Assembly: GCA_030390025.1 (NCBI GenBank)
Contig: CM059432.1
Span: forward strand, 23,004,001 to 23,068,000
Length of the DNA: 64,000 bases
Origin: Squalus acanthias
Taxonomy: Eukaryota
Direction of reading: 5' to 3'
The notes beneath the pieces were generated by a model. It was not told the origin of the DNA. It made no database searches and was given only the letters and a program-made list of their open reading frames with translations. The position numbers and the translations under genes were made by a program. Every line of letters starts with the position of its first letter. The first letter of the stretch is position 1. This document shows, piece after piece, positions 6,706-57,013 of this stretch.

Positions 6706-7077
6706 TTTTTTTATTCATTCACGGGATGTGGGTGTCGCTGGCCAGCATTTATTGCCCATCCCTAATTGCCCTTAACTGAGTGGCTTGGTAGGCCATTTCA
6801 GAGGGCTGTTAAGAGTCAACCACATTGCTGTGGGTCTGGAGTCACATATCGGCCTGACTGGGTAAGGATGGCAGATTTCCTTCCCTAAAGGACATTAGTG
6901 AACCAGATGGGTTTTTAAGACAATCCAGTAGTTACATGGTCACCAGTACTGATACTAGCATTTGATTCTAGATTTATTTTTTAACTGAATTTAAATTTGG
7001 GATTTGAACTCACGCCTCCAGATCATTAGTCCTCTGGATTACTCGTCCAGTAACCTAACCACTATGCTACCATTCCC
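6706..7077 (-). mobile_element. tRNA-derived SINE made of the head plus 3' tail of the LINE at 16718-20263
   Basis: Reverse complement starts GGGAATGGTAGCATAGTGG, runs through ...ctctgaaatggccta..., then joins directly to aagggcaattagggatgggcaataaatgctggcc and poly(A). Confidence 0.85.
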
Positions 7078-7189
7078 TTAATAATCCACTTTAATAATCC
7101 ACCCATGACATTGACCATCCAGGCTCAAATATGAGGAATCAACATCTTCAGAGGAGGAAAGAAAATTTGGGGAAAAATTATACTCCAGA

Positions 7190-11734: not shown

Positions 11735-13420
11735 AACAACAACAACAACTTGTATTTATATAGCGCCTTTAACGTAATAAAAAGTACCAAGGCGCTTCAC
11801 AGGTGTATTATAAGACAAAAAATTTGACACCGAGCCACATAAGGAGAAATTAGGGCAGGTGACCAAAAGCTTGGTCAAAGAAGTAGGTTTTAAAGAGCAT
11901 CTTAAAGGAGGAAAGAGAGGTAGCGAGGCAGAGAGGTTTAGGCAGGGAATTCCAGACCTTAGGGCCTAGGCAACAGAAGGCACGGCCACTAACGATTGAG
12001 CGATTATTATCAGGGATGCTCAAGAGGGCAGAATTAGAGGAGCGCAGATATCTCGGGGGGTTGTGGGGCTGAAGGAGATTACAGAGATAGGGAGGGGCGA
12101 GGCCATGGAGGAATTTGAAAACAAGGAGGAGAATTTTGAAATCGAGGCATTGCTTAACCGGGAGCCAATGTAGGTCAGCGAGCACAGGGGTGATGAGCGA
12201 ACGGGACTTGGTGCGTATTAGGATGTGGGCAGCCGAGTTTTGGGTGACCTCAAGTTTAGGTAGGGTAGAATGTGGGAGGCCAACCAGGAGTGCGTTGGAA
12301 TAGTCAAGTCTAGAGGTAACAAAGGCATGGATGAGAGTTTCAGCAGCGGATGAGCTGAGGCAAGGGCGGAGACAGGCGATGTTATGGAGGTGGAAATATG
12401 CGGTCTTAGTTATGTCGCGGGTATGTGGTCAGAAGCTCATTTCAGGGTCAAATATGACACCAAGGTTGTGAACAGTGTGGTTCAGCCTCAGACAGATGTT
12501 AGGGAGAGGGATGGAGTCAATGGCTAGGGAACGGAGTTTGTGGAGGGGATCAAAAACAATGGCTTCGGTTTTCCCAATATTTAATTGGAGAAAATTTCTG
12601 CTCATCCAGAACTGGATGTTGGACAAGCAGCCTGACAATTTAGGGACTGTGGAGGGGTCGAGAGAAGTGATAGTGGGGTGGAGCTGGGTGTCGTCAGCGT
12701 ACATGTGGAAACTGACGCTGTGTTTTCGGATGATGTCGCCAGGAGGCAGCATGTAGATGAGAAATAGGAGGAGGCCAAGGATAGATCCTTGGGGGACACC
12801 AGAGGTAACGATGCGGGAGCGGGAAGAGAAGCCATTGCAGGTGATTCTCTGGCTACGATTAGATAGATAAGAATGGAACCAGGCGAATGCAGTCCCACCC
12901 AGCTGGATGATGGTGGAGAGGCGTTTTCTGTTTGTATTTCAGATTTCCAGCATCCACAGTATTTTGCTTTTGAGGATGAGAAGTTGTTTGGTGTTAAGGC
13001 TGAGGGAGCGAAACAGTGAAGATATCTCGGTAATAACATTTTTGTGGTACTTGGGTGGGCGGTAGAGAACGAGAATTTTAAATGAGTGCTGAGAGGGGTG
13101 GAATAAGGTGAGATGCTCAAAGGAGGAGAAAGTGCCGGAGGAGTAGGGACACAGACCAAGGTGTGATTTGGTGATGAGAGCCACACCACCACCACGGCGG
13201 TCTGAGCGGGGCAAGTGGTGGAAGGTATAGCCAGATGGGGAGGCTTCATTTAAGGGTAAGGTGTCATCACCCTTCAACCAAGTTCCCGTCAGGGCCATGA
13301 TGTCGATGCAATCATCCACGCTAAGCTCATGGATGGCAAGAGCCTTGTGCGCAAGTGAACGGACATTCTGGAGGGAGATGTAGGGAAGGTCGGTGATGGC
13401 TGACCCACTGCCAGTGTCCA
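11735..13420 (-). mobile_element. L2-clade LINE with internal deletion (APE fragment, RT C-terminus, (TTG)n tail)
   Basis: ORFs contain HMYADDTQL, LHWLPV and LQNVRSL...MALTGTWL (endonuclease). aacaacaac tail at 11735. Confidence 0.88.
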
Positions 13421-13589: not shown

Positions 13590-14070
13590 TTTTTTTTACT
13601 TGTTCTTGGGATGTGTATGACACGGGCAAGGCCACAATTATCGCCCATCTTAGTTTCCCCGAGAAGGTGGTGGTGGTGGTGGACTTTCAGTTTGAACTGA
13701 TGCAGTCCTTGTGATGATGGTGCTTCCACAATGGTCTTATGTAGGGCATTCCAGGATTCTGACTGAGCGACACTGAAGTCAGGATGATGGTGTTCCTACA
13801 ACATTGCTGGTCTTGTTCTTCTTGATGGTAGAGCTCACAGGCGAGGAAGGTGATGCTAAAGTAACCTTGGTGAGTTGCTGTAGTGCATCGTGTAGATCGT
13901 ACATACAGCATCTACATGTGAGCCAAGGGTGGAGGGAGTGGATATTGAGTCCAGTGGCAGTGGCACCAGTCAAGTTAACCACTGTGTCCTGGATGGTGTT
14001 GAGCTTCTTGAGTGTGTTGTGGTTGCACCCATCCAGGTGAGTGGTGAGTATTCCATCACAGTCTTGAATT
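13590..14070 (-). mobile_element. Older, degenerate copy of the 16718-family LINE 3' end
   Basis: Gapped similarity to 1165-1700. Confidence 0.65.
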
Positions 14071-14267: not shown

Positions 14268-15797
14268 CTATTGGTAGTGGGGAAGCTTTTAGAAACGATA
14301 ATCTGGGACAAAATTAACAGTAACTTGGACAAGTGTGGATTAATTAAGGAAAGCCAGTACGGATTTGTTAAAGACAAATCATGTTTAACTAAATTGATTG
14401 AGTTTTTTGAAGAGGTAACAGAGAGGGTTGATGAGGGCGATGTGATTGATGTGGTGTACATGGACTTTCAAATGGCATTTGATAAAGTGCCACATAATAG
14501 GCTTCCCAGCAAAGTTGAAGCCCATGGAATAAAAGGGACAGTGGCAGCATGGATATGAAATTGGCTAAGTGACAGGAAACAGAGAGTAGTGGTGAACGGT
14601 TGTTTTTCAGACTGGAGGAAGGTATACAGTGGTGTTCCCCAGGGGTCGGTATTAGGACCACTGCTTTTCTTGATATATATTAATGACTTGGACTTGGGTG
14701 TACAGGGCACAATATCAAAATTTGCAGCTTACACAAATCTTGGAAGTATCGTGAACAGTGAGGAGGATAGTGATAGACTTCAAGAGGACATAGACAGGCT
14801 GGTGGAATGGGCAGACACGTGGCAGATGAAATTTAATGCAGAAAAGTGCGAAGTGATACATTTTGGTTGGAAGAACAAGGAGAGGCAATATAAACTAAAG
14901 GGTATAATTCTAAAGGGGGTGCACGAACAGAGAGACCTGGGGGTATATGTGCAGAAATCGTTGAAGGTGGCAGGGCAGGTTGAGAAAGCGGTTAAAAAAG
15001 CATACAGGATCCTGGGCTTCATAAATAGAGGTCATGATGCGGAGATGCCGGTGTTGGACTGGGGTGGACAAAATTGAGAGGTCGCACAACACCAGGTTAT
15101 AGTCCAACAGTTTTATTTGAAATCACAAGCTTTCGGAGCTATCGATTTGCTCCTTCCTCAGGTGAAGTGGTGTTGTGCGACCTCTCAATTTCATAAATAG
15201 AGGCATAGAGTACAAAAGCAAGGAAGTTAAGATGAACCTTTATAAAACACTGGTCTGACCTCAACTGGAGTACTGTGTCCAATTCTGAGCACCACACTTT
15301 AGGAAGGATGTGAAGGCTTTAGAGAAGGTGCAGAAAAGATTTACAGGAATGGTTCCAGGGATGAGGGACTTCAGTTACGTGGATAGACTGGAGAAGCTGG
15401 GGTTGTTCTCCTTAGAGCAGAGAAGGTTGAGAGGAGATTTGATAGAGGTGTTCAAAATCACGAGGGGTCTAGACAGAGTAGATAGAGAGAAACTGTTCCC
15501 ATTGGCGGAAGGGTCGAGAACCAGAGGACACAGATTTAAGGTGATTGGCAGAAGAACCAAAGGTGACATGAGGAAAAACATTTTTACACAATGAGTGGTT
15601 AGGATCTGGAATGCACTGCCCCAGATTCAATCGTTGCTTTCAAAAGGGAATTGGATAAGTACCTGAAGGAAAAAAAAATTGCAGGGCTACGGGGAAAGGG
15701 CGGGGGAGTGGGACTAGCTGAAGTGCTCTTGCAAAGAGCTGGCACGGGTTCAACGGGCCGAATGGCCTCCTTCTGTGCTGTAACCATTCCATGATTG
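14268..15797 (+). mobile_element. CR1 LINE RT fragment interrupted by a Penelope-like insertion
   Basis: KSCLTKLIEFFEEV, DFQMAFDKVPH, GVPQGSVLGP and RRLRGDLIEVFKI motifs. Internal stops. CR1 tail. Confidence 0.92.
15032..15189 (-). mobile_element. Short Penelope-like element (PLE) end with hammerhead motif
   Basis: 14-bp TSD ttcataaatagagg (15018-15031 / 15190-15203). Short inverted end. Homologous to 19288-19546 and 49641-50172. Confidence 0.8.
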
Positions 15798-16717: not shown

Positions 16718-19700
16718 GGGAATGGTAGCGCAGTGTTAATGTCACTGGGCTAATCATCCAGAGGCCTGGACTAATGATCCAGAGACGTGAGTTCAAATCC
16801 CACCACGGCAGCTGGGGAATTTAAATTCAGTTAATTAAATATCAAATAAATAAATAAATCTGGAATAATTACTAGTATCAGTAATGGTAACCATGAAACT
16901 ATCGGATTGTCATAAAAACCCATCTGGTTCACTAATGTCCTTTAGGGAAGGAAGTTTGCAGTCTTTAACTGGTCTGGCCTATATGTGACTCCAGACCTAC
17001 AGCAATGTGGCTGACTCTTAACTGCCCTCTGAAATGGCCTAGCCATTGTAACAAACTGCTACGAAACAAAATAATAAGAATGAAACCGACCTCGGCACTG
17101 GCTACGGACACGGCAATGGCACGCCCAGTCGACCCTGCAAAGACCTCCCCACTGACATCTGTGGACTTTTGCCAAAATTGGGAGAGCTGTCCCACAGACT
17201 AGTCAAGCAACAGCCTGACATAGTCATACTTACAGAATCATACCTTTCAGCCAATGTCCCAGACTCCTCCATCACCATCCCTGGGTATGTCCTGTCCCAT
17301 CAGCAGGACAAACCCACCAGGGGTGGCGGCACAGTGGTATACAGTCGGGAAGGAGTGGCCCTGGGAGTCTTCAACATTGATTCCGGACCCCATGAAGTCT
17401 CATGGCTCCAGGTCAAACATGGGCAAGGAAACCTCCTGCTGATTACCACCTACCGCCTTCCCTCAGCTGATGAATCAGTACTCCTCCATGTTGAACACCA
17501 CTTGGAAGAAGCACTGAGACTAGCAAGGGCACAGAATGTACTCTGGGTGGGGGACTTCAATGTTCATCACCAAGAGTGGCTCGGTAGCACCACTACTGAC
17601 CGAGCTGGCCGAGTCCTGAAGGACATCGCTGCCAGTCTAGGCCTGCGACAGGTGGTGAGAGAACCAAAACGAGGGAAAAACCTACTTGACCTCGTCCTCA
17701 CCAACCTACCTGTCGCAGATGCATCTGTCCATGACAATATTGGTAGCGGTGACCACTGCACAGTCATTGTGGAGACGAAGTCCCGTCATCACACTGAGGA
17801 CACCCTCTATGGTGTTGTTTGGCACTACCACCGTGCTAAATGGGATAGATTCAGAACAGATCTAGCAGCTCAAAACTGGGCATCCATGCGGCGCTGTGAG
17901 CCATCAGCAGCAGCAGAATTGCATTCCACCACAATCTGTAACCTCATGGCCTGGCATATCCCTCACTCTACCATTACCATCAAGCCAGGGGACCAACCCT
18001 GGTTCAATGAGGAGTGTAGAAGAGCATGCCAGGAGCAGCACCAGGCGTACCTAAAAATGAGGTGCCAACCTGGGGAAGCTGCAACACAGGACTACATGCA
18101 TGCTAAAAAGCGGAAGCAGCATGCTATAGACAGGGCTAAACGATCCCACAATCAACGGATCAGATCAAAGCTCTGCAGTCCTGCCACATCCAGTCGTGAA
18201 TGGTGGTGGACCATTAAACAATTAACAGGAGGAGGAGGCTCCATGAATATCCCCATCCTCAATGATGGTGGAGCCCAGCACATGAGTACAAAAGACAAGG
18301 CTGAAGCGTTTAGCAGCCAGAAGTGCCGAGTGGATGATCCATATCGGCCTACTCCTGAGGTCCCCACCATCGCAGAAGCCAGTCTTCAGCCAATTAGATT
18401 CACTCCACGTGATATCAAGAAACGGCTGTGAGCACTGGATACAGCAAAGGCTATGGGCCCCGACAACATCCCGGCTATTGTGCTGAAGACTTGTGCTCCA
18501 GAAACTAGCCGCACCTCTAGCCAAGCTGTTCCAGTACAGCTACAACACGGGCATCTATCCGACAATGTGGAACATTGCCCAGGTATGTCCTGTCCACAAA
18601 AAGCAGGACAAATCCAACCCGGCCAATTACCGCCCCATCAGTCTACTCTCAATCATCAGCAAAGTGATAGAAGGTGTCATCGAAAGTGCGATCAAGCGGC
18701 ACTTACTCACCAATAACCTGTTCACTGATGCCCAGTTTGGGTTCTGCCAAGACCACTCGGCTCCCGACCTCGTTACAGCCTTGGTCAAAACATGGACAAA
18801 GGAGCTGAATTCCAGAGATGAGGTGAGAGTGACTGCCCTTGACATCAAGGCAGCATTTGACCGAGTGTGGCATCAAGGAGCTCTGGTAAAACTGAAGTCA
18901 ATGGGAATCGGGGGGGAAACGCTCCACTGGCTGGAGTCATACCTAGCACAAAGGAAGATTGTTGTGGTGGTTGAAGGTCAATCATCACAGCCCCAGGACA
19001 TTGCTGCAGGAGTTCCTCAGGGCAGTGTCCTAGACCCAACCATCTTCAGCTGCTTCATCAATGACCTTCCCTCCAACATAAGATCAGAAATGGGGATGTT
19101 CGCTGATGACTGCACAGTGTTCAGCGCCATTCACAATAATGAAGCAGTCAATGCCCGCATGCAACAAGACTTGGACAACGTTCAGGCTTGGGCTGATAAG
19201 TGGCAGGTAACATTCACATCACAGGAGTGCCAGGCAATGACTATCTCCAACAAGCGAGAGTCTAACCACCTCCCCTTGATATTCAACAAAAATGAGAAGT
19301 CGCACAACACCAGGTTATAGTCCAACAGATTTATTTAAAATTACAAGCTTTCGGAGCTGTCGCCCCTTCGTCAGGTAAAGGTGCAATGAAGGAATCCACA
19401 ATATTACACAGCTCCGAAAGCTTGTAATTTTAAATAAATCTGTTGGACTATAACCTGGTGTTGTGCGACTTCTCATTTTTGTCCACCCGAGTCCAACACC
19501 GACATCTCCGCATCATGACCACTATTCCTGGCCAGGATGGAGATGATTGATATTCAACGGCATTACCATCGCCGAATCCCCCACCATCAACATCCTGGGG
19601 GTCACCATTGACCAGAAACTTAATTGGACCAGCCACATAAATACTGTGGCAACAAGAGCAGGTCAGAGGCTAGGTATTCTGCAGCAAGTGTCTCACCTCC

Positions 19701-20263
19701 TGACTCCCCAAAGCCTTTCCACCATCTACAAGGCACAAGTAAGGAGTGTGATGGAATACTCTCCACTTGCCTGGATGAGTGCAGCTCCAACAACACTCAA
19801 GAAGCTCGACACCATCCAGGACAAAGCAGCCCGCTTGAGTGGCACCCCATCCACCACCTTAAACATTCACTTCCTCCACCACTGGCGTACCGTGGCTGCA
19901 GTGTGTACCATCTACAAGATGCACTGCAACAACTCGCCAAGGCTTCTTCGGTAGCACCTCTCAAACCCACGACCTCTTCCACCTCGAAGGACAAGGGCAG
20001 CAACCATATGTTAACACCACCACCTCCAAGTTCCCCTCCAACTCACACACCATCCTGACTTAGAAGTATATCGCCGCTCCTTCATTGTCGCTGGGTCAAA
20101 ATCCTGGAACTCCCTACCTAACAGCACTGTGGGAGTATCTTCACCACACGGACTGCAGCATTTCAAGAAGGTGGCTCACCACCACCTTCTCAAGGGCAAT
20201 TAGGGATGGGCAATAAATGCTGGCCTTGCCAGCGATGCCCACATCCCATAAACAAATAAAATA
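16718..20263 (+). mobile_element. Near full-length LINE (CR1 group, possibly Zenon-like) with tRNA-SINE head and a disrupted APE-RT ORF
   Basis: A box TAGCGCAGTG at 16726 and B box GTTCAAATCC at 16791. APE motifs ILTESYL, GDFNVHH, LDLVLTN and GDHC. RT motifs ALDIKAAFDRVWH, GVPQGS and FADD. Stop at 18429, frameshift near 18503, PLE insert at 19288. A-rich tail. Confidence 0.9.
19288..19546. mobile_element. Inverted-repeat PLE insertion with hammerhead motif
   Basis: 12-bp TSD ttgatattcaac (19276-19287 / 19547-19558). Inverted arms at about 19288-19360 and 19408-19481. Confidence 0.82.
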
Positions 20264-21716
20264 ACTTAGAGGATTGAGCAATGAAGATTGATTGTGTATG
20301 CTGGGATTTTCTCTCTTGAAACAAAAAGACTAAGGGGAGACTGGATATAAGTTTATGAAGGGTTACTGTATGTTTGATACAGTACACAGATTTCCAGAAT
20401 GATAGGGTATATCTGAGATTTGTATCGAATCATAGAATCATACAGCACAGAAGGAGGCCATTTGGCCCATTGTGCCTATGGCGGCTCTTTGATAGAGTTT
20501 GCCAATTAATCCCACTACCCTGCTGTTTCCCCATAACCCTGTAATGTTTTTTTTCCTGTCATATCTATTTGTATAAGATAACGAAAGCTAAATAGGCAAT
20601 CTTGTGTTCACAAAAGGGTGATCAACATTTGAAACAAACTTTCAGGTGTTTGAACAGGAAACTTTAAATGGTTTTGAGAAAGCTCCAGGCATCTGACAGG
20701 ATTCAGTTGTTAAACTGTATAATTGATTTTACCTAAAAACCCAACTATTCGCCCAATATAAATTGGAATGTAGCTTTGTCACTCATCTGTGGTCATTTTT
20801 CACCTCAGTGACCACCACTTATCCTCGCACGTGCATCGACATACTTGGAGATCACTAGTGAAATGTTGTCCAGTCTAATCAGTGCAGCTCAGTAACGTCT
20901 CTGCCTTTGACTGCTGACAGCCGCCAGACTGTCGGCACTCAGCACTCGACTAGTGAGCAGAGATTGGTGCAGACAGTCATTCACAACATAAAGATTGCCA
21001 AGTACAGGGTTAGAGATTGGCCTGTCGTACTGTACTTTGGCAGAAGTCTTTTTCTATTAGAAGCAATGAATAATTTTATACAGTAACAGAACTGATATTT
21101 AACTGTTATAGTCTAGTATTTACTGTTCCCCAACGTGCAGCTTTAACAACAGTGGGAAACTTGGATAACTGGTTGTCTTCTCTCCCGCCCAACTCCCTCC
21201 TGTCCCCCCACCCCCACACCCGTCTACTAGACTAATAGGGATTAAATTAACGAATGACCTCAGCCCTTGGCACCTATCTTTACTGGCTGTAAGGGGGGGA
21301 AGTCATTAGTTCTGACAGTCCATGTTTAGTGAGGCATGTCTCTCTCCGTATATATACCACCATTTTATTTAAAGGGAAAATACCCATAAAACTGCGCGAG
21401 GCCAAATTCAGAATTTCCTGATTTAATCTAAAATGGTTCAATAGGAATCAGTCCGGATATACATTTGATGCTCATTCTTAAACTGAAAGATGCATCTGTT
21501 ATGTTTTCTTGGCTTCATTGCAAATTTTTCTCTCAAAGTCAATGCTAAAGACCACACACAATAATAATTCGTCACTCCTATGAACCAGAGTGTGACTCGA
21601 TATACTCAATGTCTGTCCTGTAAGCATTGTCCAGGTTTGGGTTGAACATGAACCCTTGTTAATGAATTGGCATGAGCCTTCTCGTGCTCTTCTGATGGTG
21701 GAATAATAAATACTCT

Positions 21717-23039: not shown

Positions 23040-23383
23040 CTTTATTCATTCTCGGGATGTGGGTATCATTGGCAAGGCCAGCATTTATTGCCCATCCCCA
23101 GTTGCCCTGATACAACTGAGTGGCCTGCTAGGCTACTTCAGAGAGTAGTTAAGAGTCAACCATGTTGGTGTGGGAATAAAGTCACATATAGGCCAGACCC
23201 GGTAAGTACGGTAGGTTTCCTTACCTAAAGGACCTCAGTGAATCAGTCGGGCTTTTACGACAATCTGACAGCTTCATGGTCACTTTTACTGATACCAGCT
23301 TTTTATTTCCAGATATTTTTTTAAACTGAATTCAAACTCTCAAACTACCATGGTGAGATTTGAATTCATGTTCTCTGGATTAT
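23040..23383 (-). mobile_element. Diverged copy of the head-plus-tail SINE (6706 family)
   Basis: Colinear with 6706-7040. Confidence 0.75.
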
Positions 23384-23839
23384 TATACACCCATTATACA
23401 TCCCGCCCATTTTGCTTTCCGTTGAAATCAGTTTCCCACCCTGCCAAAAGTGAAAAGTATCCCCTTTAACTTCAAAATTATTATTTTTTTCTGCAAAAAT
23501 CTCTTCCGTCTGTTTAGCTAGACAGTAAATAAAAGGGAACGTGACTTTGCATTATTACTTCCATTCTAAGCTGGTTGAGATTTGTAAAAGCTGTGCATAT
23601 TGGGACTCAGCAACGGAGAGGTAGAAGAGCTTTAGGACGCATTACGGCAAAGCGGTGGGATCTGGCGGAGGGAGAGGCGGAAGCAGTACAGCACTTTGGA
23701 TAGGAAGGGACAAAGCATTGAGACTCAGCCAGTGAGGAATCAGAGAGTATCGAAGTGAGCAGGAAGAGGGAGCTAAAGCCAAAGACCATTCTCACCCCAG
23801 GGTGTTGAGACTAAAACTTATTTGTGATGTTCAGAAAGA

Positions 23840-24445: not shown

Positions 24446-26164
24446 TTTGAATGTTCCTAAGAACTAGGGTAGGAGGGGCAGGAGCTCTAATTGGCCAAAT
24501 GTCCTTTTTTCATTCTTGATTTATGTTCTGAATCTGTTAAAACCTTTCCAATTATGTCTATAGATTTATGATTGTGGAAGAACTGTATCGCTTGCAGATG
24601 AAAGTAGTTTAGTGTGGGTACAGACTTTCTGCTGGCTATTAACATAATGTGGGAACTGTAATGATCCCATTGCAGAGCCCTGAGGGACAACCAATCAATC
24701 ACGTTAGTGTCAGATGGTGACCCTTCAACGGAAACCATTTGATGTCATGTCTAAAAGATATGCTTGGAATGGTTTCAGTGCAACAGTGAGTTTCTCTGTT
24801 AGGAGACATAAGCAATTTGTATTGTATCAAAGGTCATGGCATATCAGAAGTGTTACAGTACATTACAGAAGTTATAATAGGATACCTAACAGATCAAGCA
24901 GATGCCATTTGACTCTCAAACAGGAGGTTATAAATTTTGGTCTCTGGGTTGCCTGTTATTCAAAAAAAAAATTTGCTTCCTCCTATACAACAGAATACTG
25001 AGCTGCATGAATCAGCTTTGATCCCGACATGCCCTTGACTCTGACTCCATCAGCCACTTCGGCTGTTCTTTCAGATTGGATCTTGTGCTGTTCAACAACA
25101 CCCGCTTCATAGAAACATAGAAACATAGAAGATAGGAGCAGGAGTAGGCCATTCGGCCCCTCAAGCCTGTTCCGCCATTTAATGAGATCATGGCTGATCA
25201 TCCAAATTCAGTACCCTTCAATCCTGAGCTGAGCATTTTATCTCCAAATCCAGCTGTTGTCAAGATTGCATTTTTCCACCTGCAGAACATTGCCTGCTTT
25301 CGCCTATATTTCTTCTTGTTGGTCTCTTTGCCTCCATCCATCAGTTAATCCAGAACTCTCCTGATTTCCGTCCGTCTCTTTCCTCCACAGTGGATTGACT
25401 TCAAGATCCTTGTCCTTGTCTTTCAAATCACTCCACAGTCTCACTGCACCCTACCTAAGCAATCTTCTCCAGCCATACATCTGTACCTGAATTCTCCACT
25501 CCTTTGACTTCACACCATCGCTTCTTACCTGCTCCACTATCAGAGAATGATCATCAGCCATTATGTCCTACGTTTTGCAATTCTCTCCAAAATCATTTTC
25601 CTTCACTATCTCCTTTATTGCATTCAAAAGCCTCTTTAAAGACCGCTTCCCCTTTCTCTGACTATATCTGTGGTCTCTCCCTCACTCTCCCTCCCAAATT
25701 CCTCCTTTTCCTGCTTGGTATCCATTTCTCCACCTTTGAGATGTACTTTTATGCAAGGAGTGCTAGGGAGAGAGGGAGACACGTGAAAGTTGTTATTAGT
25801 CAACAGATCTGAGCTAAAGTAGTGGCAGCGTTCGACAACTGGCCTCAGTACCCCTGGGATCAGGAGGAGAAAAAAAAATCAGCTAGCGATCCCAGTGTTC
25901 AGTGGCCTCTACTAGAAAGTGTACATGTGTGGAGGTAAGGCAGTGACAGGATTGGGCTCAGCTGTGATACTCTGCATGATCTGCCATCATTTGCTATTTG
26001 GACTCGTAAGAATCACCACCTGGTTGAGGTTGACCCATGGCTCATGATCCAGCATATGCTACTTGCTTCAGGAGAGGAGGAAAAACATTTGAAGGGAACA
26101 AAATCTGAAAACACAAATCTAGTTTGTTTATAAGATCACATGAATGACACAACTGCGGATTATT

Positions 26165-26890
26165 TTTTTTATTCGTTATGGGATGTGGGCATCACTGGCA
26201 AGGCCAGCATTTATTGTCCATCGCCAGTTGCCCTTGAGAAGGTGGTGGTAAGCTACCTTCTTGAACCGCTGCAGTCCGTGTGGTGAAGGTACTCCCACAA
26301 TGCTGTTAGGGAGGGATTCCAGGATTTTGACCCAGCGACGATGAAGGATCAGCGATATACTTCCAAGTAAGGATGGTGTGTGACTTGGAGGGGAACTTGG
26401 AGGTGGTGGTGTTCCCATGCGCCTGCTGCCCTTGTCCTTCTAGGTGGAAGAGGTCACAGGTTTGGGAGGTGCTGCCGAAGAAGCCTTGGCGAGTTGCTGC
26501 AGTGAATCTTGTAGATGGTACACACTGCAGCCACGGTACGCCGCTGGTGGAGGGAGTGAATGTTTAAGGTTGTGGATCGGGTGCCAATCAAGCGGGCTGC
26601 TTTGTCCTGGATGGTGTCGAGCTTCTTGAGTGTTGTTGGAGCTGCACTCATCCAGGCAAGTGGATCACACTCCTTACTTGTGCCTTGTAGATGGTGGAAA
26701 GGCTTTGGGGAGTCAGGAGATGAGACACTCGCTGCAGAATACCTAGCCTCTGGCCTGCTCTTGTTGTCACAGTATTTATTTGGCTGGTGCAGTTAAGTTT
26801 TTGGTCAATGGTGACCCCCCAGGATGTTGATGGTGGGGGATTCGCCGATGGTAATACCGTTGAATGTCAAAGGGAGGTGGTTAGACTCCT
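26165..26890 (-). mobile_element. 5'-truncated copy of the 16718-family LINE
   Basis: Colinear with 1165-1895. Confidence 0.88.
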
Positions 26891-32749: not shown

Positions 32750-34370
32750 AAATAGGAGCAGAATCAGGCTACACAGTCCCTGGGCCCGCTCCACTACCCA
32801 CAGGGCCATGACCGATCCGAACCTAGACTCATGTCCAAATTCCTGCCCGCTCCCCGTAACCCTTAATGCCCTTTACTTCTAGGAAACTGTCTATTTCTGT
32901 TTTAAATTTAATTAATGTTGTAGCTTCTACAGCTTTTTGTGGCAGCATATTCCATGGACCTACCACCCTCTGAGTGAAGTAGTTCCTCCTCATCTCAGTT
33001 TTGAAAGAGCAGCCCCTTATTCTAAGACTATGTCCCCTAGTTCTCGTCTCACCCGTCGTCGGGAACATCCTCCCCGCATCCACCCGATCCAACCCCTTCA
33101 CAATCTTATATGTTTCAATAAGATCGCCTCTCATTCTTCTGAACTCCAATGAGTAGAGTCCCAATCTACCCAACCTCTCCTCATATGACCACCCCCTCAT
33201 CCCCGGGATTAACCGAGTGAACCTTTTTTGCACTGCCTCGAGAGCAAGGATGTCTTTCCTTAAGTAAGGACACCAAAACTGTATGCAGTATTCCAGGTGC
33301 GGTCTCACCAATACCTTGTACAACTGAAGCAATACCTCCCTATTTTTATATTCTATCCCCCTAGCAATGAAAGCCAACATTCCATTTGCCTTCTTAATCA
33401 CTTGCTGCACCTGCATACTATCCTTTTGAGTTTCGTGCACCAGGACCCCCAGATCCCTTTGCACTTCAGTACTCTCCAGTTTCTTGCCATTAAGATAATA
33501 AATTGCTCTAGGATTTTTCCTGCCAAAGTGCATCACCTCACACTTTCCAGTGTTGTATTCCATCTGCCAAATCTCTGCCCACTTACTTAGCCTGTCTATG
33601 TCCCCTTGCAGGTTTTTTATGTCCTCCTCACTCACTACTTTCCCTCCCATCTTAGTATCATCTGCAAATTTTGATATGTTACACTTGGTCCCTTCCTCCA
33701 AATCGTTAATATAGATTGTAAAGAGTTGGGGACCCAGCACTGACCCCTGTGGAACACCACTAGTTACTGATTGCCAGTCTGAGAATGAACCATTTATCCC
33801 AACTCTTTGCTTTCTGTTAGATAGCCAATCCTCTATCCATGCCAGAATATTACCCCCAATCCCGTGATTTTTTACCTTAAGCAATAATCTTTTGTGTGGC
33901 ACCTTGTCAAATGCCTTTTGGAAGTCTAAATACACTACGTCCACTGGTTCCCCTTTATCCACTCTATATGTTACTTCCTCAAAGAACTCCAGCAAATTTG
34001 TCAAACATGACTTCCCCTTCGTAAAACCATGCTGACTTTGTCCTATTAAATTATGATTATCCAAATGTCCTGTTACTGTTTCCTTAATAATGGACTCCAA
34101 AATTTTACCTACCACAGATGTTAGGCTAACCGGTCTATAGTTACCAGCCTTCTGTCTACTGCCCTTTTTAAATAAGGGTGTTACATTAGCAGTTTTCCAG
34201 TCTGCCGGGACCTTAGCGGAATCCAGGGAGTTTTGAAAAATTATTACCAATGCATCTACAATCCCTACCGCCACTTCCTTCAAGACTCTAGGATGTAAGC
34301 CATCAGGTCCAGGTGATTTATCCGCCTTGAGTCCCATTATTTTACCGAGTACCACTTCCTTAGTGATTTT
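32750..34370 (-). mobile_element. Young CR1 LINE with uninterrupted RT-domain ORF (5'-truncated)
   Basis: ORF 32829-34526 has KSPGPDG, NYRPVSLTS, DFQKAFDKVPH, GVPQGSVLGP and FADD with no stops. The first ~50 aa come from flanking sequence. Confidence 0.95.
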
Positions 34371-36161
34371 GATCAGGTAGGAATGGAAACACAAAGGCAG
34401 TCCCTTGGAGCTGAACAATGGAGGAAAGTCCATGGAAGGGGATGATGTGGCTGTCCATATTGAGTGCTGTGGAAAGGTCAAGGTGGATAAGGAAGGATAA
34501 TGCATCACAATCACTGAAGATGTCATTTATAAATTTGGTCATGGTGGTCTCAGTGCTGTGAGCAGGGCAGAAACTAGACTGAAGGAATTCAAACAGGGAG
34601 TTTTGGGAGAGATGGGTACAGAGCTGCGAGTGAATGCCACATTCTAGGACATTATAGAAGAAAGGAAGGCTAGAGGTGGGGCTGTACTTAGAGAAGACAA
34701 CTGCATCAGAGGTGAATTTGATAATGGAAGGATGGGGTAGGGTAGATGCCCAAGCAAAGAAAATAATTAACAACATTGGCCAGCATGAGGGCCAGGAAGT
34801 TTAGTTGATTGGTCAGGAGTTATCAAGAGAGCACTAGGTATGTCTCATTAGAGGTTAGCTTAGAGAGGGTAGGGTGATTAATAAAGTGATTGATGTAGAG
34901 TAGGTAGGAGACTGGGAGGAGGGGGAGAAGAGGTTGGACATGGGGAGAAAGGGGAGATAATAGCAAAGGTGGCTGAAATCCTTGAACTCCTCAGACTTGG
35001 CATTGGCGGTGAGGGTGGAGGAGGACGAAGAGATGGATTTGAGAAGGTGTTTAGTCATGCAGAAAAGGAGCATTGGGTTGTTCTTGTCTTCAATGTAATT
35101 CTGGAGGAATTGGAGGATTTTGTCTAGGAAACAAGGCATGGTAATACAAGACATGGTTGGGCCAAATCTGTCAATAAATGACTAGTTGTGCATCAGTTGC
35201 CTCTGAGTTTGCAGCCCTCTGACTTAAGATAGAGAAGATGAAGAATGTATGGGGGAAATGGTGGGGGTGAGAAACAGTAATTGATTTGGTTGAATCGAGG
35301 GCATCAGTGGCAAAGGCAAGGTAGCAGTTTAGCAGGTCAACAATACAGATAGACAGAAAGAAGGCCAGATGAGAGGGAGATGGGAATTTGAGAATGAACC
35401 AGTGAGGGAGCTGAGAGAGAGTTTTCCATGAGCATATGTTGAGGGTAGTGGGTGTTGAGGGTAGTTGCTATAGAGGAAGGTAGAGGGACATCGGGATAAG
35501 GGATTGATCAGAACATTGGGACAGGTGGCTGATCGGGATGAGAGGGCATGAATGGTGGCCGGCAGTATTTTGTTGTTTTATTGTTGAGCCAGGAGGAGTA
35601 CTCCTGCTCCTCCTAACTCCACATTCAGGTCAGTATTTTTTCAAAACTTACCTTGGTGATGACCTGTAGCGGTCTCTTTAAAGATCGCCAGTTAGGCCGT
35701 ATGACCTGGTTTTCCTGATTTTCAGGGCAACCCAAATTTGCACAGGGTGCCTCAAACAAGTGTTAGGCCCCTTCTTTGCATATGCAAAGGGCCTAATGCC
35801 TGTTTAAGGCGCTAACCCTGGTAGCCTATATTTTGCCTATACTAATATGGTGGGCGGCGCACTTTCAGCTCGTAATGAGTGTGTACTTCTTACCTGCCAT
35901 ATTGGAAGCTTTGGTGCCCATTTAGCACCGCGAATCAGGTGTAGCGCCATCGAATTTCTAGACCCAAGTTCCCTTCGAACTAGGTTATGTCACCTTCTGT
36001 AACTATTGTTTGTTTTACTTGTTACCCAAATACCTGTTTTAAATTAGACCAAACATATTGGATAACTGTACACTTCGGAAGTAATTTTTGTCCCCCGTGG
36101 TAATCTTGGTATCAAATTGACCCAAAACTTGCTGTGGCAGACTTGCCCTTGCCCGTTTAAT

Positions 36162-39350: not shown

Positions 39351-39555
39351 AAATGTAGGACGGCACGTTCTAGGTGGGACATCAGCGGGTAAGTCACCCA
39401 GTCGATTTTAGCTGCCCACCACACGGTTTTCGCCATGTAAACAACATCCTAGAAATTAAAGAATAGCAAAGGATAAGTATCTGAGCTTTTTCCTGCTGTT
39501 GAATGAATGTTAATAGCTACATCAAATATGCATCTGCCATGCGCGCACACATAAA

Positions 39556-40780
39556 ACAACAACAACAACTTGCATTTATATAGCGCCTTTAACAAAGTAA
39601 AATATCCCAAGTGTCCCGTCACAGGAGCGCTATCAAACAAAATTTGACACCGAGCCACATAAGGAGATATTAGAACAGATTTCAGAGATCTGTCTTAAGG
39701 AGCGTCTTAAAGGAGCAAAGAGAGGTAGAGAGGCGGAAAGGTTTAGGGAGGGAATTCCAGAGCTTAGGGCCTCGGCAACTGAAGGCACGGCCGACAATGG
39801 TGGAGCGATTAAAATGGAGGATGAACAAGAGGCCAGAATTGGAGGAGCGCAGATATCTCGGAGGGTTGTAGGGCAGGAGAAGGTTGCAGAGATAGGGAGG
39901 GGCGAGGTCATGGAGGGATTTGAAAACAAGGATGAGAATTTTAAAATTGAGACGTTGCTTAACCGGGAGCCAATTTAGGTCAGCGAGCACAGGGGTGATG
40001 GGCGAACTGGACTTGGTGCGAGTTAGGACACGGGCAGCCGAGTTTTGAATGACCTCTAGTTTACAGAGGGTGAAAGATGGGAGGCCGGCCAGGAGTGCAT
40101 TGGAATAGTCAAGTCTAGAGGTAACAAAGGCATGAATGAGGGTTTCAGCAGCAGATGAGCTGAGGCAGGGGCGGAGTCGGGCGATGTTACGGAGGTGGAA
40201 ATAGGCGGAAATAGGATGACGCGGATATGTGGTTGGAATCTCATCTCGGGATCAAATACGACACCAAGGTTGCGAACGGTCTGGTTCATCCTCAGATAGA
40301 TGCCAGGGAGAGGGATGGAGTCAGTGGCTAGGGAACGGAGTTTGTGGCGGGGACCGAAAACAATGGCTTTGGTCTTCCCAATATTTAGACGAAGGAAATT
40401 CCTGCTCATCCAGTACTGGATGTCGGACAAGCAGTCAGATAATTTAGAGACTGTGGAGGGGCCGAGCGAGGTGGTGGTGAGGTAGAGCTGGGTATCATCA
40501 GCGTACATGTGGAAACTGACTCTGTGTTTTCAGATGATGTTGCCGAGCAGCAGCATGTAGCTGAGAAATAGGAGGGGGCCAAGGATAGAACCTTGGGGGC
40601 CACCAGAGGTAATGGTGCGGGAGTGGGAAGAGAAGACATTGCAGGTGATTCTCTTGCTATAAACGGATAGATAAGAATGGAACCAGACGAGTGCAGTCCC
40701 ACCTAGCTGGATGACAGTGGAAAGGCTAAGAGAAGGATGGTGTGGTCAACCATGTCAAAGGCTTCAGGCGGTTGAGAAGG
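39556..40780 (-). mobile_element. L2 LINE 3' fragment
   Basis: YADDTQLY and LNWLPV motifs. aacaacaac tail. Confidence 0.88.
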
Positions 40781-41954: not shown

Positions 41955-42762
41955 TAATCCATTCCCTAGCCACTGACTCCATCCCTCTCCCTAGCATCTG
42001 TCTGAGGCTGAACCACACTGTTTGCAACCTTGGTGTCATATTTGACCCTGAAATGAGCCTCCGACCACATACCTGCGGCATAACTAAGACCGCCTATTTC
42101 CACCTCCGTAACATCACCCGTCTCCGCCCTTGCCTCATCTCATCCGCTGCTGAAACCCTCATCCATGCCTTTGTTACCTCTAGACTTGACTATTCCAATG
42201 CTCTTCTGGCTGGCCTCCCACGTTCTACCCTACCTAAACTTGAGGTCATCCAAAACTTGGCTGCCCGTGTCCTAACTTGCACCAAATCCTGTTCATCCAT
42301 CACCCCTGTGTTCATTGACCTACATTGGCTCCCAGTTAAGCAACGCCTCGATTTCAAATTTCTCATCCTTGTTTTCAAATCCCGCCATGGCATCGCCCCT
42401 TCCAATCTCTGTAATCTTCTTCAGCCCCGCAACCCCCCGAGATATCTGTGCCCCTCTAATTCTGCCCTCCTGAGCATCCCTGATTATAATCGCTCAACCA
42501 TTGGTGGCCGTGCCTTCTGTTGCCTAGGCCCTAAGCTCTGAAATTCCCTGCCTGAACCTGTCCGCCTCGCTACCTCTCTTTCCTCCTTTAAGACGCTCCT
42601 TAAAACCTACCTCTTTGACCAAGCTTTTGGTCACCTGCCCTAATTTCTCCTTATGTGGCTCGGTGTCAAATTTTTTGTCTTATAATAATCCTGTGAAGCA
42701 CTTTGGGACATTTTACTACGTTAAAGGTGCTATATAAATACACGTTGTTGTTGTTGTTGTTG
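41955..42762 (+). mobile_element. L2 LINE 3' fragment
   Basis: HAFVTSRLDYSN and LHWLPV motifs. (TTG)n tail. Confidence 0.9.
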
Positions 42763-47901: not shown

Positions 47902-48842
47902 TATTGTCCCTACTGTTGCTTTGGCTGAAATTAATACAGCATAGACTGAAACTCGAACCTGGGACCTTATGTAAGACCACAAGAAAGTCCAAAGTGAGAA
48001 TAAGCCATTCAGCCTATCAAGTCCAATCAATCCAGAGCCCAAGTATGATTATTCTATCCTGAACTTTCCCCTCCCACACCGCCTATTGATCCTTACTTCA
48101 GATATCCTTATCCTATCTCCCCTGAAATAAAGTCAAACACTGCTAATGGTCTCCCGATGAATCTTCATCCACTTCTCAACAGAAATGGATCCAGCTCCCT
48201 CTTCAAGGTGTCAATTTATCCCGAATTAGCTATCTTCTTTTCTCTATATCTCAATACCGCAACATGCAGTTTGCTTACCACTGGGCCCTCATTTAAACAC
48301 GAAGGTTCATTTTTAGCCACAGAGATGCCATGTTAGCTGAGACTGACAGTACAGCAAATTCATTTGGTACTTGTATTGAGAGCTTGGCATATTTGGATAG
48401 AAATAAATGTTCTATATTTGCATCTTCCAGCTTAACTACCATAGTGAGAAGAAATCAAACAAATCAAACAGAAACTCTGCCCTCCACCTATTACTGTCCA
48501 AAATTACCTCAGAGAGACCCTAGCCACACTGGTCAATAGCTACCGGCTGGCCTCGCTAATAACTGTTAGCTCACTGCTGTCTCTTAACTTTTAAAAATAA
48601 AGTCTGTTTGACTTTATTTCAGGGGAGATAGGATAAGGATATCTGTAGTAAGGATCACTAGGCGGTGTGGAAGGGGAAAGTTCAGGATAGAGTAATCATA
48701 CTTGGGCTCTGGATTGATTGGACTTGATAGGCTGAATGGCTTATTCTCACTCTGGACATTCTTGTGGTCTTACATAAGGTCCCAGGTTCGAGTTTCAGTC
48801 TATGCTGTATTAATTTCAGCCAAAGCAACAGTAGGGACAATA
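47902..48842. repeat. Inverted duplication with ~238-bp arms and a 465-bp spacer
   Basis: 47902-48139 is the reverse complement of 48605-48842 with few mismatches. Confidence 0.9.
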
Positions 48843-49640
48843 GGCATTGTCTAAATGACAGCTAAATGTTGAATTTGACATTTTCCTTCCAGCCAGTGTC
48901 CAATACAGATATTTATTAGGGCAAATGATTTGATACAGCGTGACATCCCATGGATATCCCACAGACTTGCTGCTCAAGTACTAAAACTTTGCATAAAAGG
49001 TTGTGGAGGCTGTGAGAATGAGGATGTTCGAGCGATTGAAACTTATCACAACAAGTAACTTGCTCTAATTATTATTTGGTGCAATCATTTTTGTATTATC
49101 CTTCTTTCACATTCTCCACCAGCTTCTCCTTAAAAAATGTACTTAAAAGCTTTTTTTATTTAGCTGCTTGCGCCATTACTCTCGATCCTATGGTCCGTTT
49201 TGGAAAAAAAATAATTTAATTGGACAAAAATACATTTTAAAGATATTCCTGTCAGCAGCCCTGCTGCTCGACAGCACCCAGGCAAGTAAACTCGACTGCA
49301 GAACTCAAAGGGTTAACATTAAAATGAAAGCCAATGGTAGATATTTAAAGTGAACATGTATGAATCTGTCCACAAAGTGGTCCACAAATCCCAATGAGAA
49401 CAGAAGACTCTATCTTAGAGCCATATGTAAAATGTATTACACTAAGGGAATTGCTATATAGAAGCAGTCAAAGGGTTGTGAATCTTGGTAATTCTCTACC
49501 CTAGGGGGCTGTGGATGCTCAGTCATTGTGTATATTCAAGACAGGGATCACTAGATTTTTAGATACTAACGTAATCAAGGGATATGGGGATAGTGCGGGA
49601 AGGTGGAGTTGAGGTAGAAGATCAGCCATGATCTTATTGA

Positions 49641-50172
49641 GAAGTGGCACAACACCAGGTTATAGTCCAACAGTTTTATTTAAAATTACGAGCTTTCGGA
49701 GCTGTTGTCCCTTCGTCAGGTAAAGGTACAATGAGGGAATCTATTACACAGTATATAAACACAGAAAGCAATTTGTCTGCAGAGATACAATCTTTTAGGG
49801 AGGCATTACATCAAAGACACATCAGAGTACAGCTAAGACAAAGAGATGGGTCACAGGGGGTCAAAAAAAAAGTTAAAAGCTCAACTGCAGACGGCAGGAT
49901 TTGACACGTTGGACCCCCTGTGACCCATCTCATTGTCTTAGCTGTACTCTGATGTGTCTTTGATGTAATGCCTCCCTAAAAGAATGTATCTGCAGACAAA
50001 TTGCTTTCTGTGTTTATATACTGTGTAATAGATTCCCTCATTGTACCTTTACCTGACGAAGGGGCAACAGCTCCGAAAGCTTGTAATTTTAAATAAAACT
50101 GTTGGACTATAACCTGGTGTTGTGCGACTTCTCATTTTTGTCCACCCCAGTCCAACACCGGCATCTCCGCAT
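49641..50172. mobile_element. Inverted-repeat PLE insertion in a CR1 3' tail (about 49465-50230)
   Basis: 14-bp TSD catgatcttattga (49627-49640 / 50173-50186). Arms at about 49641-49862 and 49912-50130. Hammerhead motifs on both strands. Confidence 0.87.
50049..50086 (+). ncRNA. Minimal type I hammerhead ribozyme motif (PLE-associated)
   Basis: TTAC-CTGACGA-A-GGGGC-AACA-GCTCC-GAAA-GCT-T-GTAA: stem I TTAC/GTAA, catalytic core, stem II, and palindromic AGCT in place of stem III. Confidence 0.75.
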
Positions 50173-50964
50173 CATGATCTTATTGAATGGCGGAGCAGGC
50201 TCAAAGGGCCAAATGGCCTACTCCTGCTCCTATTTCTTATGTTCTTATATTCTCGGTCTTTGTCCATCCAAGTGCTATAGTGAAGGGAAGCAACAGATGG
50301 ACAGTATATCTTGTGTAGATATACACAAATAATTACCTATTGGTGTTACAATTTTTCAACACAGTTTAGTGTCAACATTTCCATTTCAAATTTGCCACAT
50401 CAACTGTCGCAATGTTCTGGTCACAAGGCAGCTCTGTGAACTGAGTTTCTGCAGTCTCTCTCCCAACGAATCGTCATCATGTATATAAAAAAAAAAATTC
50501 ATCAACTCACCATTGGCAATGCCAAGGGCAATATACTAGTGCGGTTGTGTGTAGTTAAGTAATATATTTGTGATCTTCGATTTGTTGCATCAGCTGGCCT
50601 GTCTGTAACATGTGCTCCCACCAAGAGAGAGGGCAGAAAGTTGCTCACAAACTTGTGTTGGAGTTGTCACTGTCCATTTTTGATTGGAAAGTCCTAATAG
50701 GCTGGGTGGACAAGATCCATTTTCGAGTGTGAGGCCCCGTGTTCATCCCATTTTCTAGGTCGCACACAATCTCGTAGAAGCCAAGTATTTATGGTTAGTA
50801 TAGGACTCAGAGACTCCGGGTTTTGCTGTTTCAGTTGGTATGAGTAGACAACTTCTTGCCTCGTTCTCCACTCAGCAACCACTGCTGCTGAGATCTGTAT
50901 GAGTTATTTGCAGCCAGGTTAATCTGATGTCCTGATGTTAAGATCCTGCAAATCCATTGGCAGG

Positions 50965-55949: not shown

Positions 55950-56730
55950 AATAACAATAATTTGTATTTATTTAGTGCCTTTAATGTAGTAAAACATCCC
56001 AAGGCGCTTCACAGGAGCGTTATCAATAAAATTTGACACCGAGCCACATAAAGAGGCATTAGGTCAGGTGACAGAAAGCTTGGTCAAAGAGGTAGGTTTT
56101 AAGGAGCATCTTAAAGAAGTAGAGAGAGGTTGCAAGGCGGAGAGGTTTAGGGAGGAAATTCCAAACATTAGAGCCTAGGCAGCTGAAGGTTGGGCCGTCA
56201 ATGGTGGAGTGATGAGAATCGGGGGTGTGCCAAAATTGGAGGATCGCAGAGATCTTGGAGGGTTGTAGGGCTGGAGGAGGTTACAGAGATAGAGAGGGGC
56301 GAGGCCATGGAGGGATTTGAAATCAAGGATGAGATTTTTAAAATCGAGGTGTTGCCAGACCGGGAGCCAATGTTGGTCAGCGAACACAGGGGTGATGGGT
56401 AAATGGGACTTGGTGCGAGTTAGGATACAGGCAGCAGAGTCTTGGCTCAAGTTTATGGAGGGTGGAAAATGAAAGGCCAGCCAGGAGAGCATTGGAATAG
56501 TCAAGTCTAGAGGTAACAAAGGCATGGATCAGGGTTTCAGCAGCGATGAGCTGTAGCAGGGGCAGAGATGAGCGATGTTATGGAGGTAGAAGTAGGCGAT
56601 CTTGGTGATGGAGTGGATATATGCTCAGAAGCTCATCTCAGGGTCAAATAGGACGCCAAGGTTGTGAACGGTCTGGTTCAGCTTCAGACAGTGACCAGGG
56701 AGAGGGATGAGTCGGTGGCTAGGGAACAGA
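55950..56730 (-). mobile_element. L2 LINE 3' fragment
   Basis: Homologous to 11740-12540. QHWLPV motif. Confidence 0.85.
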
Positions 56731-57013
56731 GTTTTTTTGGTGTACATCTCAATCTGCAAACTTCCCCTGCAAGTACAATTATATACTTGACGTCAGGCTT
56801 ACAGGAATCAGACTTTGTGGTCTTAAATGGACAGGTTAGTTTAAACATAGCTCCATCTTAGCAGCAGGATAATACATTGCACAGTACGAGGTATAATGCT
56901 CCTCTCATTTTAAAACAGCAAATCATCCACGTTGCAATGAGCAATGCCATAGACGATCTGATGGTATTCTGTAATTATACATTGAGTAACATTTGTATTT
57001 TATGCTTCAACAG

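Follow-up and report, generated by a model that had tools for sequence, protein, structure and literature searches.

A 64,000-nt stretch of the Squalus acanthias genome (assembly GCA_030390025.1, contig CM059432.1, positions 23,004,001 to 23,068,000 of the forward strand; hereafter the window) was found to carry a decayed full-length copy of a Zenon-type long interspersed element (LINE), at the 5' end of which stands a tRNA-derived head shared with a short interspersed element (SINE). [quoted passage not shown] Judging from its sequence, the headed Zenon family is rather likely to combine the two modes, i.e. to be an autonomous, protein-coding LINE transcribed by Pol III. The window copy encodes an apurinic-like endonuclease (APE) and a reverse transcriptase (RT) in one open reading frame (ORF), ends in a short 3' untranslated region (UTR) and is composed as follows (window coordinates).

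16718-20264, + strand: decayed full-length elasmobranch Zenon-type LINE copy (sequence, copy alignment, match by eye of the 5' 400 nt to SquAca_Zenon-1)
16718-16811, + strand: tRNA-derived head, the 5' end of full-length copies (Rfam tRNA match, copy ends)
16726-16736, + strand: A-box-type motif, a predicted Pol III type 2 promoter element (sequence)
16745-16784, + strand: 21-nt tandem duplication between the A and B boxes (sequence)
16789-16800, + strand: B-box-type motif, a predicted Pol III type 2 promoter element (sequence; T-arm in the Rfam alignment)
16812-17047, + strand: body common to LINE and SINE, a candidate translation element (comparison of copies and published rows)
17052-20203, + strand: single APE-RT reading frame, broken in the window copy (stop-to-stop frame, Pfam)
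17080-17202, + strand: conserved ATG after an A-rich linker, with a short out-of-frame ORF overlapping the start of the APE-RT frame
17181-17765, + strand: apurinic-like endonuclease domain (Pfam PF03372/PF14529)
18601-19242, + strand: reverse transcriptase domain (Pfam PF00078)
20204-20264, + strand: short 3' UTR with AATAAA at 20212-20217 and a decayed A-tail, common to the SINE

An abundant LINE family with a tRNA-like head

The genome was searched with 16718-17400 and 40 of the 9,664 candidates were scored. All 39 non-self matches spanned the head/ORF junction, their flanks were unrelated to each other, and 27 of the 39 also reached the 3' end. Exact 24-nt motifs were present in the genome 3,713 times for the head-to-linker junction, 9,943 times for the body and 42,685 times for the 3' end, in comparison to no matches for backwards control motifs. 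The column majority of the 40 copies (3,296 nt) comprised the tRNA-like head, a single APE-RT frame and an A-tail; the copies were 92-98 % identical to it and the window copy 95.9 %. The SINE-headed LINE is a real, abundant family and not a one-off chimera.

The initial annotation had left room for a template-switch event at this locus, and a SINE-LINE chimera of that kind would be either unique to the locus or amplified in trans by a master LINE with a different head. Template switching between SINE and LINE RNAs has been described (PMC4824008), and none of 40 copies scanned had an intact frame, the longest reaching 547 codons. On the other hand, the copies number thousands, no alternative 5' end was found among 26 truncated copies, the ORF is under purifying selection (see below) and the same structure is seen in published consensus sequences of five shark and ray species. 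The chimera is thereby largely refuted, and in either form it can be given hardly any weight.

Among 62 copies with both ends (a set biased to long copies) 17 started at position 1 and 25 within the first 10 positions. Of 39 further copies obtained with the whole-length query, 9 started within the first 9 bases and the starts of the other 30 were scattered from 26 to 1075. The upstream sequences of 26 of these 30 truncated copies had nothing in common at the junction, bar one pair that continued upstream in element sequence, and no alternative 5' UTR was seen among the copies examined in both sets. A grouping of 5' ends around position 480 had at first suggested a second 5' UTR, which the upstream comparison did not bear out. 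Copies keep the whole head, with no internal 5' hot spot, and full-length LINE copies begin at its first base, 8 nt 5' of the A box, like the SINE copies. The lack of a target site duplication noticed earlier at the window copy was borne out there and extended to the family: a shared flank word of at least 7 nt was found in 4 of the 62 two-ended copies, in comparison to 4.4 % of mismatched pairs.

The Rfam tRNA model matched 16729-16811 weakly (23.5 bits, E = 0.021, under the gathering score of 29), as is usual for SINE heads. ARAGORN called no tRNA on the window copy, the A-box-type 11-mer of which has two changes from the family form. [quoted passage not shown] The LINE therefore shares with tRNA-derived SINEs the 5' tRNA-related head with A and B boxes; the remaining attributes of such SINEs (short, non-coding, non-autonomous) do not apply to it, and apply to its short partner at 6706-7078.

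The comparison with published consensus sequences covered the initial 400 nt of some 1,000 table rows. Two exact B-box strings were confined to elasmobranch Zenon rows and a 20-nt body motif occurred in 6 elasmobranch Zenon rows and in no other row. By eye, the A/B-box head was present in all 7 elasmobranch consensus rows, representing five species, and these 400 nt were free of four-T runs (T4) there; in these species the boxes are kept and the spacer between them is variable, and the 3' 140 nt of the body are nearly identical. By the same inspection, 3 hagfish and coelacanth Zenon rows had no head and contained T4 runs. Within S. acanthias the boxes changed among copies at 2.4-3.6 %, no different from the 2.6-2.8 % found elsewhere in the element, as expected because copies decay after insertion. 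At 16945-16970 a candidate stem in the conserved body was noticed by eye; when the published rows of sharks and rays are compared, it differs by one change affecting both sides and by another affecting a single side.

The resemblance of the body to the MetaSINE domain suggested by the initial annotation found no support in the bivalve sequences to which the comparison was limited. MetaSINEs carry a 66-bp Meta-domain right after the tRNA head; no likeness to the bivalve members BivaMeta-SINE1 or BivaMD-SINE1 was seen by eye, and a 12-nt motif of these two had no match at up to 3 mismatches within 16718-17050.

The head could alternatively act in RNA processing (of the RNase P or ribozyme type) and free the element from host transcripts, as the ribozyme resembling that of hepatitis delta virus (HDV) does in R2. 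The 5' end of the element lies approximately where a mature tRNA would begin, and the 5' ends of lepidopteran Zenon show a motif that presumably corresponds to one in the HDV-like ribozymes of RTE LINEs. However, the first 7 bases of the shark element are by eye unpaired with the bases after the T-arm, so that there is no acceptor stem, no ribozyme family was detected up to E = 10, and the body matched no Rfam family. When head, body and linker were folded, there was no overall excess of structure (z -0.7), and the few windows reaching z -3.5 were inconsistent between two copies except at the head duplication. Nor would a processing signal predict the terminator avoidance described below. This explanation is considered very improbable.

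The reading frame and its start

The majority sequence contains one stop-to-stop frame of 969 codons, the first in-frame Met of which is codon 282. The window copy is dead, with a stop at 18429 plus frameshifts, and its domains were recognised by Pfam (APE E 6e-12, RT E 1e-34). The relatives returned by protein searches bore no name and were 26-48 % identical, fragments reaching 68-81 %; a named Zenon reference was not among them.

The frame opens at 17052 and the first strand of the endonuclease lies about 90 nt past the shared body, therefore there is no room for ORF1. The close spacing and the missing ORF1 had been pointed out in the initial annotation and were confirmed, but the lack of ORF1 cannot serve as evidence for the promoter, since it is shared by all Zenon LINEs (PMC13343379).

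Selection on the frame was assessed at non-CpG sites of 78 copies by comparing nonsynonymous (N) and synonymous (S) variants according to the number of copies sharing them. Singletons comprised 1309 N and 473 S (N/S 2.77), variants in 2-4 copies 523 N and 268 S, and variants in at least 5 copies 38 N and 41 S plus one stop (N/S 0.93). The N/S ratio of the latter class differed from that of singletons (Fisher P = 3.8e-6). The lower ratio among shared variants indicates that source elements were selected for their protein, i.e. that their APE-RT ORF is under purifying selection.

Whether an ATG near 17080 is in frame in a consensus had been raised as a question in the initial annotation. Of 79 sequences examined 20 were without an anchor and 59 were scored, and the ATG was out of frame with APE-RT in the window copy and in 52 of the 59. 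It lies 80 nt 5' of the endonuclease start in the undeleted copies (14 of 59), and the seven in-frame cases carry differing deletions. Inspection by eye showed the same ATG in each of the five elasmobranch species published, and in the stingray row, where the distance is readable, it stands 74 nt away in the same out-of-frame register. With the conserved ATG in another frame, translation of APE-RT would have to involve a frameshift or begin at a non-AUG codon. The linker between this ATG and the endonuclease (17080-17136) is also a hot spot of deletion: in 45 of the 59 copies it falls short of the 80-nt form, through deletions that mostly differ among copies and fall between short repeats.

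Sense-strand terminators and the transcribing polymerase

If Pol III reads the element, its sense strand must avoid oligo-T, TTTT and TVTTT being the shortest working Pol III terminators (PMC8466645). The initial annotation had not made this prediction, and it held against controls from the same genome. The sense strand of the majority has no T4 and 7 T3 runs, as against 14 A4, 11 C4 and 9 G4. With protein and codon usage fixed by shuffling of synonymous codons, T4/TVTTT were absent from the ORF versus 3.5 expected (P = 0.014) and T3 were depleted (P = 0.005); on the antisense strand T4/TVTTT numbered 19. The two control LINE ORFs showed no depletion, with 16 (16.6 expected) in a young CR1-like family and 14 (12.2 expected) in a second family. 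Base shuffling gave P = 0.018 for T4 and P = 0.0004 for T3. In 40 copies (112,559 aligned nt) there were 11 T4 versus 508 A4, and no T4-creating variant was shared by more than 3 copies. Phe makes up 1.9 % of the frame; among long relatives, of which 33 were compared, the median is 4.3 %. The significance of the terminator absence varies with the null model, from P = 0.014 to P = 0.21; within this genome the signal is consistent and family-specific, yet of modest size, and the low T content of the strand accounts for part of it.

The first control is represented in the window at 32850-34374 (- strand); its 39 other scored copies are about 100 % identical and at least 8 keep an intact frame of 1,004 codons. 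The second (17,850 candidates) is represented at 11735-12930 (- strand), 39555-40726, 41958-42761 and 55950-56734. An older Zenon-like subfamily (window 13591-14063, - strand) shares about 70-78 % identity with the majority. Its 12 copies fetched all stopped short of the 5' end, and 9 T4 versus 22 A4 were counted in 9,219 heavily decayed nt, which made it uninformative as a control.

The 3' end of T+ SINEs is made up of AATAAA, a terminator and the A-tail, in that order. In the shark family AATAAA is present, and the A-tails are about 5-10 nt long among 50 tails listed. The T-run preceding the A-tail could be scored in the 39 of 78 copies that matched the pattern, and was 1-2 nt long in 31 and at least 4 nt long in 6 of them. 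These runs were rejected as a Pol III signature because they lengthen with age. Unstranded contigs of four runs, presumably of RNA, cover all 30 bins, their strand, start and cap being unreadable; the head/ORF junction is bridged by one contig (run X9), and SINE-type joints occur in each of the four runs, the contigs being of uncertain kind.

The sequence of events proposed for the Pol III-driven LINE is the following. The elasmobranch Zenon ancestor would have gained the head from a tRNA-derived SINE, other Zenons being without it. Pol III would initiate at the first G of the head and read through 3.3 kb because terminators have been selected against, and the RNA would be polyadenylated near AATAAA, as in mammalian T+ SINEs. 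It would then be translated without a cap, starting via a frameshift or a non-AUG codon, and the protein would copy its own RNA by target-primed reverse transcription. Cap-independent translation has been proposed for R2 (PMC12203849), a precedent that makes this step possible, and Pol III transcripts are known to retrotranspose without ORF1p (PMC2666806). The results support part of the initial interpretation (the family is genuine, full-length copies start with the head, the ORF was selected, the SINE looks like a derivative). The ORF1 argument and an in-frame ATG had to be abandoned, and the Meta-domain likeness found no support in the limited comparison.

Several observations weigh against the scheme. 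According to the published view (PMC10886601), the processivity of Pol III keeps such elements from exceeding about 1.3 kb. There is no in-frame start codon, by eye no canonical slippery heptamer was found, and no significant structure accompanies the site. The absence of T4 alone was not significant under synonymous shuffling (P = 0.11 and 0.09), and a first-order Markov model gave P = 0.21 for T4 and P = 0.16 for T3. The sense strand is T-poor overall (19.6 %), for which other causes are possible, and one of the 33 relatives is even lower in Phe (1.5 %). The controls were limited to two other LINE families of this genome. There is no fixed terminal terminator, T4 or longer runs preceding the A-tail in just the 6 of 39 tails mentioned. 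Finally, the Pol III RNA and its translation are predicted from the genome sequence.

Alternatively, the captured SINE head could serve as an ordinary 5' UTR and Pol II could transcribe the element, from an internal promoter in head or body or by host read-through, the lack of T-runs being a by-product of a T-poor, C/A-rich coding strand. LINEs are normally Pol II transcripts (PMC10886601), capped RNA is easier to translate, the AATAAA and A-tail fit equally well, and the T4 absence is non-significant under the Markov and synonymous nulls. On the other hand, full-length copies start like SINEs, at the very base from which the A box is 8 nt distant, and the boxes are, by eye, kept in the five species while the spacer changes. 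Shuffling that preserves both the protein and its codon usage still shows T3 and T4/TVTTT to be depleted, and the two control LINEs are undepleted. Moreover, a ribosome scanning from a cap would first meet 8 upstream ATGs of the majority as well as the out-of-frame ATG. Transcription by Pol II is considered unlikely, though it keeps an appreciable share of the probability.

A split mode, in which Pol III makes the template RNA and the protein comes from Pol II read-through of genic copies, accounts jointly for three features: the head, the avoidance of terminators and the lack of an in-frame start. The purifying selection, together with the persistence of the ORF in both sharks and rays (PMC13343379), would be easier to understand if the copied RNA supplied its own protein, and the split mode is judged improbable.

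Should transcription of the whole LINE by Pol III prove right, a natural 3.3-kb retrotransposon RNA, made by Pol III and translated, would break the division of polymerases between LINEs and SINEs. The length limit of Pol III would then be set by terminator content and not by processivity, the element would offer a natural cap-independent translation element, and there would be a simple route to the birth of tRNA-SINEs. The novelty rests on the head and its use, the Zenon family itself being published.

The partner SINE and comparison with known elements

The remaining repeats of the window that bear on the family, and one that interrupts the LINE, are the following.

6706-7078, - strand: SINE copy A, in which the 3' tail of the LINE directly follows its head and body
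23041-23410, - strand: SINE copy B, older, with an approximate 5' limit
1166-2317, - strand: 5'-truncated copy of the headed Zenon LINE
26163-26888, - strand: 5'-truncated copy of the headed Zenon LINE
19288-19546, strand undefined: unrelated later insertion of 259 nt, with 75-nt perfect inverted arms and flanks of a 12-nt direct repeat

The partner SINE, 400 nt long, contains nothing but LINE sequence. The majority built from 30 short copies, which are 90-97 % identical to it, consists of the first 325 nt of the LINE (96 % identity) and the last 69 nt (91 %). It thus has the composition of a short internally deleted element (SIDE), i.e. only the 5' and 3' ends of a LINE. Copies A and B have differing junctions, B keeping about 5 more LINE-type linker bases. 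The junction of A was present as 120 exact motifs in the genome, and a guessed motif for a second SINE junction had no match there. The shared part ends exactly at the boundary between SINE head and tail, which favours derivation of the SINE from the headed LINE. Today's SINE likely arose by internal deletion of the headed LINE, perhaps more than once, as one of the two options offered by the initial annotation had it.

The 259-nt insertion is absent from the other LINE copies examined and has relatives in the window at 15024-15167, 49636-49751 and 50021-50184; it presumably resembles an inverted retroelement end or a miniature inverted-repeat transposable element. A separate inverted pair lies at 47902-48139 and 48605-48842 (238 nt, 97 % identity).

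Stuart et al. 2026 (PMC13343379) define Zenon LINEs by the lack of ORF1 and a poly-A tail, the latter unique to them among CR1-group elements, and report them from elasmobranchs, coelacanth and hagfish. The window LINE has both features, a single APE and RT ORF without ORF1 and a poly-A tail, and belongs to the published elasmobranch family; by eye the majority matches SquAca_Zenon-1 over its first 400 nt, the extent of the comparison. SquAca_Zenon-1, -2 and -3, CarCar_Zenon-1, ScyCan_Zenon-1, RhiTyp_Zenon-1 and HypSab_Zenon-1 are likewise about 3.3 kb long, with a single APE-RT ORF and poly-A. The accessible text of PMC13343379 and its preprint makes no mention of tRNA, Pol III or a promoter for elasmobranch Zenon, so that head, avoidance of terminators and partner SINE are not described there.

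The literature covered, with Repbase Reports, Dfam and most subscription papers outside it, contained no Pol III-driven or tRNA-headed autonomous LINE beyond one sentence on RTE-1_DAn, a name found there in PMC5786205 only. RTE-1_DAn and related elements are LINEs with tRNA-like sequence matching many SINE2 elements (Kojima 2018, PMC5786205). Unlike Zenon they belong to the RTE clade, and the passage on them does not state the position or role of the tRNA-like part; RTE-1_DAn may be an independent, unexamined precedent.

In Lepidoptera, Zenon (3.1-3.7 kb) has also repeatedly given rise to a short, internally deleted derivative consisting of its 5' and 3' ends, Persaeus (PMC6740152) and ZenoSINE (PMC6685494). 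The lepidopteran Zenon-derived 5' end is described as having neither tRNA homology nor a Pol III promoter (PMC6740152), whereas the shark family has both boxes. tRNA-derived SINEs, above all the T+ SINEs B2, Dip and Ves (PMC8466645), and the TRIMp3 elements Helenus, Ajax and Cassandra (PMC10886601) resemble the shark family in the A/B-box head, AATAAA, T residues ahead of the A-tail (mostly 1-2 in the shark copies scored) and a Pol III promoter, here predicted, inside a retroelement. None of them codes for protein or is autonomous, and their length does not exceed about 1.3 kb, in contrast to the shark LINE, which encodes APE-RT over 3.3 kb. R2 (PMC12203849) is likewise autonomous and has a single ORF; its RNA does not come from Pol II in capped form, and cap-independent translation has been proposed for it. 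It differs from the shark LINE in being site-specific, co-transcribed with rRNA and released by an HDV-like ribozyme; no such ribozyme was found for the shark LINE in the Rfam scan and its copies keep the whole head, which sets it apart from the ribozyme-headed LINEs of the R2 and RTE type.

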